Of a stretch of 64,000 bases of DNA, positions 6,756 to 8,364 are shown in pieces. How positions within the stretch are numbered: the stretch's first letter is position 1; each line of letters begins with the position of its first letter. The position numbers and the translations under genes are program-made. The stretch is from Squalus acanthias. Taxonomy: Eukaryota. The DNA lies in the NCBI GenBank assembly GCA_030390025.1, contig CM059432.1, positions 75,518,001 to 75,582,000 of the forward strand, read 5' to 3'. The notes below the pieces were generated by a model. That model did not search any database and was not told where the DNA came from. It saw nothing but the letters and a program-made list of their open reading frames with translations.

Positions 6756-7540
6756 AATCAATCTCAAGTTATCTCGTGCGTGTTCTACCAACCAGGATCC
6801 ATACATTACACACACATAATTTTGTGCTGCTTCATCAGAAGCGTTCTTAACTTCCTTAATCAATAAAGTTATCGTTTTTGCATGTTTTTCCAATTGTGTG
6901 ACTACATCTTGTAGATGTATCGTCATAACTTGGTCTTTGCCTAGTTCCTGATCCTGATTAGTATTTGTTTCCTGCAGAATTTTCTTAAATTGTGCCTTAG
7001 TATCCTTAATCTCTTTATCCAAAGATGCTAAATCTAAACTATTTACAAGTGAAGTTCCCGTATTAAAAACGGTTGCTGCATCATTTATCAAGTTACGCTT
7101 TCTTCTCCTACCACGAGTTTCAGTTTCATTCCTCTCCGAACTTTGGTAAATGTGATCCTCATGATGATATCCATAACTGTTACAGTTCCTAGCCCAAAAA
7201 TCATCCACAATTTGTTGTAACAACCCCCTAAACAGGGGGGTGGTCTTTGGTTTACAGCAATTTGGTGACCCCATGTCATTTAAATTCAACATTACCGGTA
7301 CTACCTCATGGTGGACTTCATGGTACAGGATCGTACAAGTAGGGATAACAACTGAACCATTCTTAGGTCCGTCGGTGTGGGTGGGGCAAACAACCTCGGT
7401 TTCCTGTTGCTTTTCCCGTGTCTTATTCAAAGGAAATTTGGAGCGAACTTTCAACACTACTGCATGTATCACTGCAGCCCCATTACCACATCCCTGCACA
7501 TGGCAGGTAGCTACACATCCCACTCTACCATACCACTTAT

Positions 7541-7716
7541 AAGAACATAAGAACATAAGAAGTAGGAGCAGGAGTAGGCCATACGACCCTTCGGGCCTGC
7601 TCCGCCATTCAATAGGATCATGGCTGATCCGAACCTAAACTCACGTCCACTTCCCTGCCCGCTCCCCATAACCCTTAATTCCCTTATCAGCTAGGAAACT
7701 GTCTATCTCTGTTTTA
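7541..7716 (-). mobile_element. CR1 3'-end fragment inserted in env
   Basis: (AAGAACAT)n tail, 3' UTR similar to 2300-2450, TSD CACTTAT (7534-7540 / 7717-7723). Confidence 0.85.
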
Positions 7717-8364
7717 CACTTATGTACCACGGATAAGAATCACTGACATTAGTCATGCCGCATTGCCCTGTATATGTTCCGACATTCTGTTGTGCACAGT
7801 CATGCACACACCCATAAATTCCCTTGTCCATTTCCCAGAAATTTTCCCAGCATAACTTGGCGTCCTTGCCGGAGCCTCCACTTCTCGACTGGGTCGGTTT
7901 CTTCCCCTTTTCATTCTCCCAGGGGTTTCCCACCTGGTAGTACCTCCCAGCCTTATTCTCCTCAGCCTTAACAAACCATATTACTGGTGGTCTAGTTCCA
8001 CTACCTCCTTCACATTTTACACATATCTTCTTCCCCTCATGGACCTCGTAAGTGTTGACTCGTACCGTCCCCATGCAATTTGTATCACACATGCCCATAG
8101 TGGACTGGAGTACAACCTTCCTGGTGGTGCCCTGGGGTGAGGCCATCGGGACGAGAGTGGCATTGCCCCTAGTTCCGTTGCAATGTACTTTCATTTGGAA
8201 GATGTCGCTTTTAGAGGCTCCTCCGGTGACAACCACCGTTACCAGCCCGATCGTCACCACGCACGACTGCCATACCCTCATCGTGCCTGCAAAACAAAAC
8301 AAAAGATCGGGCTCTACATGTTGACCTTAACTCTTATCATCCTTGGTCAATGTAGGCTCTGGGG

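Follow-up and report, generated by a model that had tools for sequence, protein, structure and literature searches.

The env open reading frame (ORF) analysed here raises the question of whether a retroviral envelope protein (Env) carries an immunoglobulin (Ig) domain at its N-terminus, and what such a domain would do there. The initial annotation of the locus had read a captured host Ig module into the start of the frame, either as an Ig-fusion Env or as a separate secreted protein overlapping env, and had assigned it to receptor binding or immune decoy function. We followed this proposal through the window, that is, the whole 64-kb stretch of DNA under analysis, through sibling copies of the element and through published envelope proteins.

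The window copy, a defective provirus

The env frame lies within a minus-strand provirus that occupies positions 265-12461 of the window and is built as follows.

11751-12461, minus strand: 5' LTR (TG...CA), with a 4-bp target duplication CCCT at 261-264 and 12462-12465
10955-11699, no strand: later insertion, a perfect 359-bp inverted repeat (100% complementary) between 5' LTR and primer site
10930-10947, minus strand: primer binding site for tRNA-Arg(UCG), in which 17/18 bases agree with the 3' end of a tRNA-Arg(tcg) gene from this genome
9290-10911, minus strand: gag in three frames, with coiled-coil N-terminus, capsid-like part and one CCHC knuckle (zf-CCHC, E 6e-6)
8781-9239, minus strand: protease region (tblastn with a sibling frame, 40% identity)
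8365-8764, minus strand: integrase C-terminal remnant, matched by residues 967-997 alone of a 1091-aa sibling Pol
8287-8305, minus strand: pyrimidine tract and CAG, a putative splice acceptor for env shortly before its ATG, from sequence only
8213-8281, minus strand: signal peptide-like, hydrophobic start of Env, from ATG 8281, likewise read from the sequence
7799-8077, minus strand: predicted single Ig V-type domain (B-strand Cys 90, C-strand Trp 102 and F-strand Cys 158 in ORF numbering, with additional Cys at 87 and 144)
7541-7716, minus strand: insertion of a CR1 3' end with a 7-bp duplication, which breaks env and shifts its frame
7389-7535, minus strand: remainder of the linker from Ig domain to fusion core, free of Ig signature and containing WYGRVGCVATC
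7116-7388, minus strand: F2-like part of the fusion core, beginning at a C-x-x-x-x-GP-x-NG motif
6754-7115, minus strand: furin site RGRRRKR (7115-7095), fusion peptide and first heptad region
2286-6753, minus strand: long insertion with a CR1 element, which splits env
1905-2285, minus strand: env continued, Cys-rich ectodomain
1735-1904, no strand: third env insertion, short, a gap relative to siblings
1123-1734, minus strand: end of env with second heptad region, membrane anchor and tail, containing stops

The two LTRs, the 3' one of which (265-908, minus strand) is shorter at its inner end than the 5' one, are separated by a K2P distance of 0.061 over 632 sites. Set against this 6% divergence, the 100% identity of its arms indicates that the 359-bp inverted repeat is younger than the provirus or has been homogenised; the repeat has a 27-nt spacer, and its junction carries a short duplication. 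Matches of the Gag N-terminus to coiled-coil families are weak; a tRNA-Arg primer and a coiled-coil Gag are reportedly traits that Hart et al. ascribed to the snakehead retrovirus (SnRV) in 1996. RT, RNase H and most of the integrase have been deleted, leaving a pol made of the protease region and the integrase tail. With pol mostly deleted and three insertions in env, the window copy is a dead, defective provirus, and nothing about it points to use by the host. Three tandem copies of 74-75 nt lie at 6536-6755, close to the 5' end of the long env insertion. Elsewhere than in the provirus, the window holds frames at 16700-20020 and 23000-23600, which we take to resemble Harbinger-type transposase and Myb/SANT partner genes, as well as a 92-bp inverted repeat at 20117-20304 (80% complementary, 4-nt spacer).

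Signature and predicted fold of the Ig domain

On the minus-strand ORF that opens at ATG 8281, the signal-like start and the C/W/DxGxYxC signature were found where the initial annotation had placed them, with ICVKC at 8026-8012, VIWFV at 7984-7970, AKLCW at 7861-7847 and DKGIYGC at 7828-7808. The pattern C-x(9,16)-W-x(35,70)-DxGxYxC, which is based on the canonical Ig motif, is matched by a single frame in all 64 kb of the window, and 3 of 20,000 shuffled versions of the env ORF contain it. Cys90 and Cys158 are spaced by 68; about 65-75 is usual between the paired Cys of V-type domains of the Ig superfamily (IgSF). Cys87 and Cys144 may form a second bond. An alignment of 43 natural copies from five lineages, with a mean identity of 42%, conserves to at least 90% both Cys of the B strand, the Trp-Phe of the C strand, another Trp and the Cys of the F strand; the D of DxGxYxC is not family-wide.

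The second Ig motif that had been claimed beyond the CR1 insertion, WYGRVGCVATC, did not hold up: its W and 'TC' are private to the window copy, C and Y being present in all three close siblings compared (L002, L003 and L004), and searches of the frames with the Ig profile returned no second match in any of them. A second Ig domain was thus rejected, the residues of the motif being lesions of the window copy.

Profile scores of the window domain lie below the Pfam cut-offs, at 17.9 bits for Ig_3 (cut-off 30; E 0.004-0.02) and 14.3 bits for V-set (cut-off 26); over the family, Pfam Ig_3 matches 17 of the 43 copies at E<=1, the best at 6.6e-5. The fold prediction suggested with the original claim yielded a V-type sandwich of eight strands when AlphaFold2 was given the 43-copy alignment (pLDDT 70.0, pTM 0.63); 15 sequences gave no usable fold (pLDDT 37.9). 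VIA-align ranked CD8alpha and pIgR D2 (Z 8.4) and BARF1 and PD-1 (Z 8.3) closest to this model, Z values near 8 being of a size that can stem from a common arrangement. Its best matches aligned 83-92 residues at 2.5-2.8 A with 10-17% identity, its rows identifiable by title are IgSF domains, and the predicted model superposes on CD8alpha with an rmsd of 2.6 A over 89 residues. The top rows of Foldseek were antibody and T-cell receptor V domains (best E 1.4e-3, none at E 0.001), and its viral matches were weak, to Ig proteins of large DNA viruses (E>=0.026). A profile search of the PDB was led by DIP-alpha (E 7.5e-6 as the sum over three domains; single-domain E-values 0.76-5), followed by DIP-gamma and CD8alpha, and nine of the ten best family matches in the Atlas fell in one Ig clan. 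A single-sequence search of the PDB returned only two antibody light chains (E 0.66-1.2). Profile A1, built from 15 copies of two lineages, found no match in the PDB and, among 1.84 billion protein representatives, two repeat-protein matches that amount to noise. Every one of these scores is modest and all are concordant; sequence and model together make it very likely that the domain at 7799-8077 has an Ig fold.

Sub-threshold scores in Pfam and Foldseek are also what could be expected from a beta-rich region whose Cys and Trp happened to be Ig-spaced. Such a coincidence appears highly improbable, given that five methods agree on the fold (VIA-align and Foldseek using one shared model), that the signature residues are conserved throughout so diverse a set of copies and that the shuffles so seldom reproduced the pattern.

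One Env chain in sibling copies and its relatives

The CR1 insertion and the frame offset across it, both reported at the outset, are real in the window copy. A genome search with the window ORF gave at least 151 matches, with 150 of 4,773 candidates scored. In L002, L003 and L004, which are 85-89% identical to it, the junction between the Ig part and the F-like part is open in a single frame in all three cases, and the L004 frame continues beyond the junction to take in both furin site and fusion peptide. L005, also a close copy, has a frameshift within the Ig domain. Among 111 distinct Ig-bearing stop-free frames at the fetched loci, 37 get to the F2 start and 22 to the fusion peptide, figures that stand for existence and not for frequency because many members of this set are short or decayed and long frames guided the choice of some. 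In the skate protein P0003, the Ig part (Ig profile E 8e-18) and the fusion core form a single chain; relatives of the sibling Env in protein databases come from skate and sawshark only, at 67-72% identity, which suggests a cartilaginous fish as the host. The Ig and F-like parts therefore share a frame in other copies, as an Ig-fusion Env predicts, and the proposed alternative of a separate secreted Ig protein falls away: both its MVEWDV* ending and the frame offset are lesions of the window copy. Nor is the segment missing from other family members, since the Ig head is found in five Env lineages. Two sawshark gene models (P0004 and P0005) fuse the Ig-Env to host genes, Niban-like and cadherin-related 5-like; these joins are probably annotation chimeras or, less likely, cases of exonisation. 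Four contig sets of uncertain kind compared with one sibling locus gave no splice-type joint among those listed, a result that is uninformative either way.

FeLIX and Refrex-1 are secreted receptor-blocking proteins, and the window copy could in principle have left the host a similar blocker, a secreted protein of 192 aa made of signal peptide and Ig domain. Its ORF does stay open from the ATG to past the Ig domain, terminating inside the insertion, and over 123 codons this copy has 4 private synonymous changes alongside 7 non-synonymous ones, at a ratio of 0.47. These counts are too small to be separated from neutral decay and thus give no sign of selection after insertion. Moreover, a stretch of 190 codons will often stay open when about 0.03 changes per site have accumulated after insertion, and the env piece downstream is just as open; retention by the host is accordingly very unlikely.

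In the alignment of 16 natural frames, the core of this Env comprises cleavage site, fusion peptide, first heptad, Cys-rich region, second heptad and anchor. Its Atlas features match the Baculo_F and Fusion_gly clusters at 0.90-0.91 with a low recognition value (1433), and in sharing these features it resembles paramyxovirus and pneumovirus F, baculovirus F and errantivirus F-type Env. The core had no match to Pfam PF00523 and no PDB profile match among F proteins, six sibling Env frames had no Pfam match to TLV_coat (the gamma-type transmembrane subunit, TM), and a search of viral contigs with the Env profile gave 54 pattern matches, none of them confirmed. The available text on lokiretroviruses describes an Env of the same F-like build, with a GP-x-x-G motif at the F2 start, basic cleavage site, fusion peptide, heptads and anchor (PMC7947760). 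This likeness of motifs, judged by eye, and the low-recognition Atlas features suggest an F-like core.

The Pol of the siblings contains RT, tether, RNase H and integrase; in the part of the lokiretrovirus paper available, the tether and RNase H recur, and the RT motif is PFGY-x-NSP as against LPQGFHNSP here (PMC7947760). A quick tree of 79 of the 132 RT rows, built without SnRV, united sibling RTs and class I in a 57-row clade (SH-aLRT 99), with P0022 and P0025, called Loki by motif, outside it. The sibling RTs stand outside the class I clade itself, in the same wider clade as frog, coelacanth and bird elements. Their nearest Pol/RT relatives are from frogs, coelacanth and caecilian (37-50% identity); the frog and coelacanth Pol relatives P0007-P0016, about 41-50% identical, are annotated 'NYNRIN-like' or 'Gypsy integrase-like'. 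Compared by eye, the sibling RT motifs are closer to the SnRV row of the published alignment than to its Loki, foamy or gamma rows. Lokiretrovirus membership, the first lead, was rejected on the RT, which does not group with the Loki-motif rows, while the F-like Env agreed with it; five cartilaginous-fish genomes looked up in the available part of the Loki screen carry no mark (PMC7947760). By its sequence, the element looks like a class III, SnRV-like ERV and not a lokiretrovirus. SnRV-like ERVs (clade Huo, CmiERV lineage I) are known from the elephant shark, and their descriptions, in the text available, mention neither an Env architecture nor an Ig domain (PMC4422223, PMC6001957, PMC4977317).

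A sister lineage (L043, L044 and L147-L151) carries a different, short head in frame between the signal peptide and the same core.

L043 6732-7100; L147 6350 onward; L150: Cys-rich head of roughly 90 aa

This lineage has 151 matches in two subfamilies about 42% identical. Its head has no Ig-profile match, no Pfam family and no profile similarity to the Ig head, and both heads were not found at one locus among the fetched loci. In an unrooted core tree of 16 rows, thinned from 43 cores at 93% similarity, the Cys-head rows group in a single clade (SH-aLRT 100) next to the Ig-head lineages; because this tree has no known root, it is compatible with gain of the Ig domain as well as with its replacement by the Cys-rich head. 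One Cys-head copy (L043:4323-8815) has its env about 1.1 kb after gag, with a short unexplained frame between them and no long pol frame, and may be a non-autonomous gag-env element.

Precedent, origin and proposed role of the Ig head

Ig-type heads as such are in print. N-terminal IgV-fold receptor-binding domains (RBDs) are described for MLV, FeLV, Env-Pb(1), ZFERV and Env-Dbi, and the gamma-type heads bind receptors and move between Env lineages (bioRxiv 2024.03.17.585361, available text). The domain studied here resembles these gamma- and alpha-type RBDs as an independently folding IgV-type domain, N-terminal on the surface subunit, of a kind swapped between lineages. Env-Dbi, whose head is an IgV captured from SIRP with a recognisable recent donor, also retains the canonical B-F disulfide expected from the Cys of the present head, in contrast to RBD-C, which is without it; the present head differs from Env-Dbi in having no identifiable donor (bioRxiv 2024.03.17.585361, same part). 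The other difference concerns the fusion machine: those RBDs ride a gamma- or alpha-type TM, whereas the Ig head studied here sits on an F-like core. Loki Env, for its part, is headless, the signal peptide directly preceding the PGP/GP motif in 16 of the 17 entries covered (out of 23), the other one being partial. IgSF capture by an ERV also has a precedent in CrocERV31, an ERV outside classes I and II whose IgSF module is under purifying selection and in which a whole host nectin3 mRNA with three Ig domains, about 76% identical, takes the place of env; the present case is one diverged Ig domain within a complete Env (PMC4299795, available text). On the side of F-type Env, the word 'immunoglobulin' is absent from the accessible part of one dedicated paper (bioRxiv 2023.10.26.564294), and the literature within reach, which excluded Repbase, bioRxiv supplements and most subscription papers, yielded no paper in which an F-type or fish class III Env is described with an Ig domain. 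To call an Ig module unusual for a retroviral Env, as the initial annotation did, was therefore an overstatement; as far as the sources were available, IgV heads on Env, the SIRP IgV capture and the nectin3 capture by a crocodilian ERV are already in print, and the novelty lies in the pairing of an Ig head with an F-type Env.

The five Env lineages that have the Ig head in common possess cores only about 40% identical, so that any capture must be ancient and not an event of the window copy. A host origin as first claimed is plausible, and the donor itself was not found: no donor stands out in the PDB, where solved host Ig domains are 10-17% identical, or in protein collections, in which a homolog search with the Ig region retained 0 of 511 candidates and profile A1, spanning two lineages only, matched nothing beyond noise. 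We infer that the domain derived from a cellular IgSF gene long ago, before the five lineages split. A related Ig-head lineage (L034, L062-L091 and related places) is young and abundant, with at least about 50 copies at 94-100% identity over the domain and at least about 100 more near 80%. Another related env (L042:3-3086) contains a long microsatellite-like expansion in which very long frames are open on both strands.

The dN/dS of the Ig domain, another check suggested with the original claim, is 0.05-0.20 in nine of ten between-copy pairs of other lineages, the remaining pair being saturated. Such purifying selection indicates that the head was maintained during virus replication. Receptor-binding heads are often variable, and strong conservation is for this reason compatible with a structural role too, namely that the Ig fold stabilises the prefusion trimer or helps folding and is possibly an old viral module not captured from a host. 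The conserved Cys and Trp outside the canonical set and the failure to find a host donor would also fit such a cap. On the other side, the domain retains the canonical B-strand Cys, C-strand Trp and F-strand G-x-Y-x-C of cellular IgSF, and the same core is seen with another head or with none; we consider the structural explanation unlikely.

We favour a role in attachment. In the siblings, the signal-like start, Ig V-fold, linker, F2-like part, furin site, fusion peptide, heptads and anchor are encoded in one frame. After furin cleavage, the Ig domain would be kept on the surface subunit, outermost on the trimer, and would bind a host cell-surface receptor or attachment factor as a gamma-type IgV-fold RBD does. 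Paramyxoviruses have an attachment protein separate from F; the F-type core of the present Env would instead have its attachment module built in. A domain that sits in this position, folds on its own, has been exchanged for another head and has a gamma-type precedent is probably, by analogy, an exchangeable receptor- or attachment-binding head of the surface subunit.

Of the two roles first put forward, receptor binding is thus favoured over immune decoy. In the latter case the head, displayed on virions or infected cells, would mimic a host IgSF ligand (CD200-, CD8- or PD-1-like), or it would mask the core, with entry proceeding via another site. The closest viral folds are indeed herpes-, pox- and adenovirus Ig proteins, some of them CD200-like/vOX2 (E>=0.026), immune receptors lead the matching PDB folds, and the headless Loki Env suggests that the core may function without a head. 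These fold matches are however weak and tied, and solved V domains are mostly immune receptors in any case. Mimicry is not suggested by any host protein at identities of only 10-17%, the head is on the same chain as the fusion core, and the sister lineage substitutes an unrelated head for it. An immune modulator or shield is on this evidence rather unlikely.

The Ig head on an F-like retroviral Env is real, ancient and family-wide, and the window copy that led to it is dead. There is about an even chance, in our estimation, that cartilaginous fish host a large, long-lived clade of SnRV-like (non-Loki) retroviruses whose paramyxovirus-F-type Env core has a swappable head, mostly a host-derived IgV and in another lineage a Cys-rich one. 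The combination of an F-like Env with an SnRV-like Pol is relevant to whether the ancestral retroviral Env was F-type, a point for which the available text of the lokiretrovirus paper leaves four scenarios open (PMC7947760). The finding bears on target-cell recognition by those F-type fusion proteins of retroelements that work with no separate attachment protein, and it offers a natural comparison, with one core bearing an Ig or a Cys-rich head in one genome and headless in lokiretroviruses. The Ig head is moreover a small soluble domain suited to stand-alone binding tests. Foamy virus Env has been linked to the F-type; if our reading is true, these viruses would form the third retroviral group with an F-type Env, after lokiretroviruses and foamy viruses, and the IgV-head solution of gammaretroviruses would have been repeated independently on a different fusion machine.
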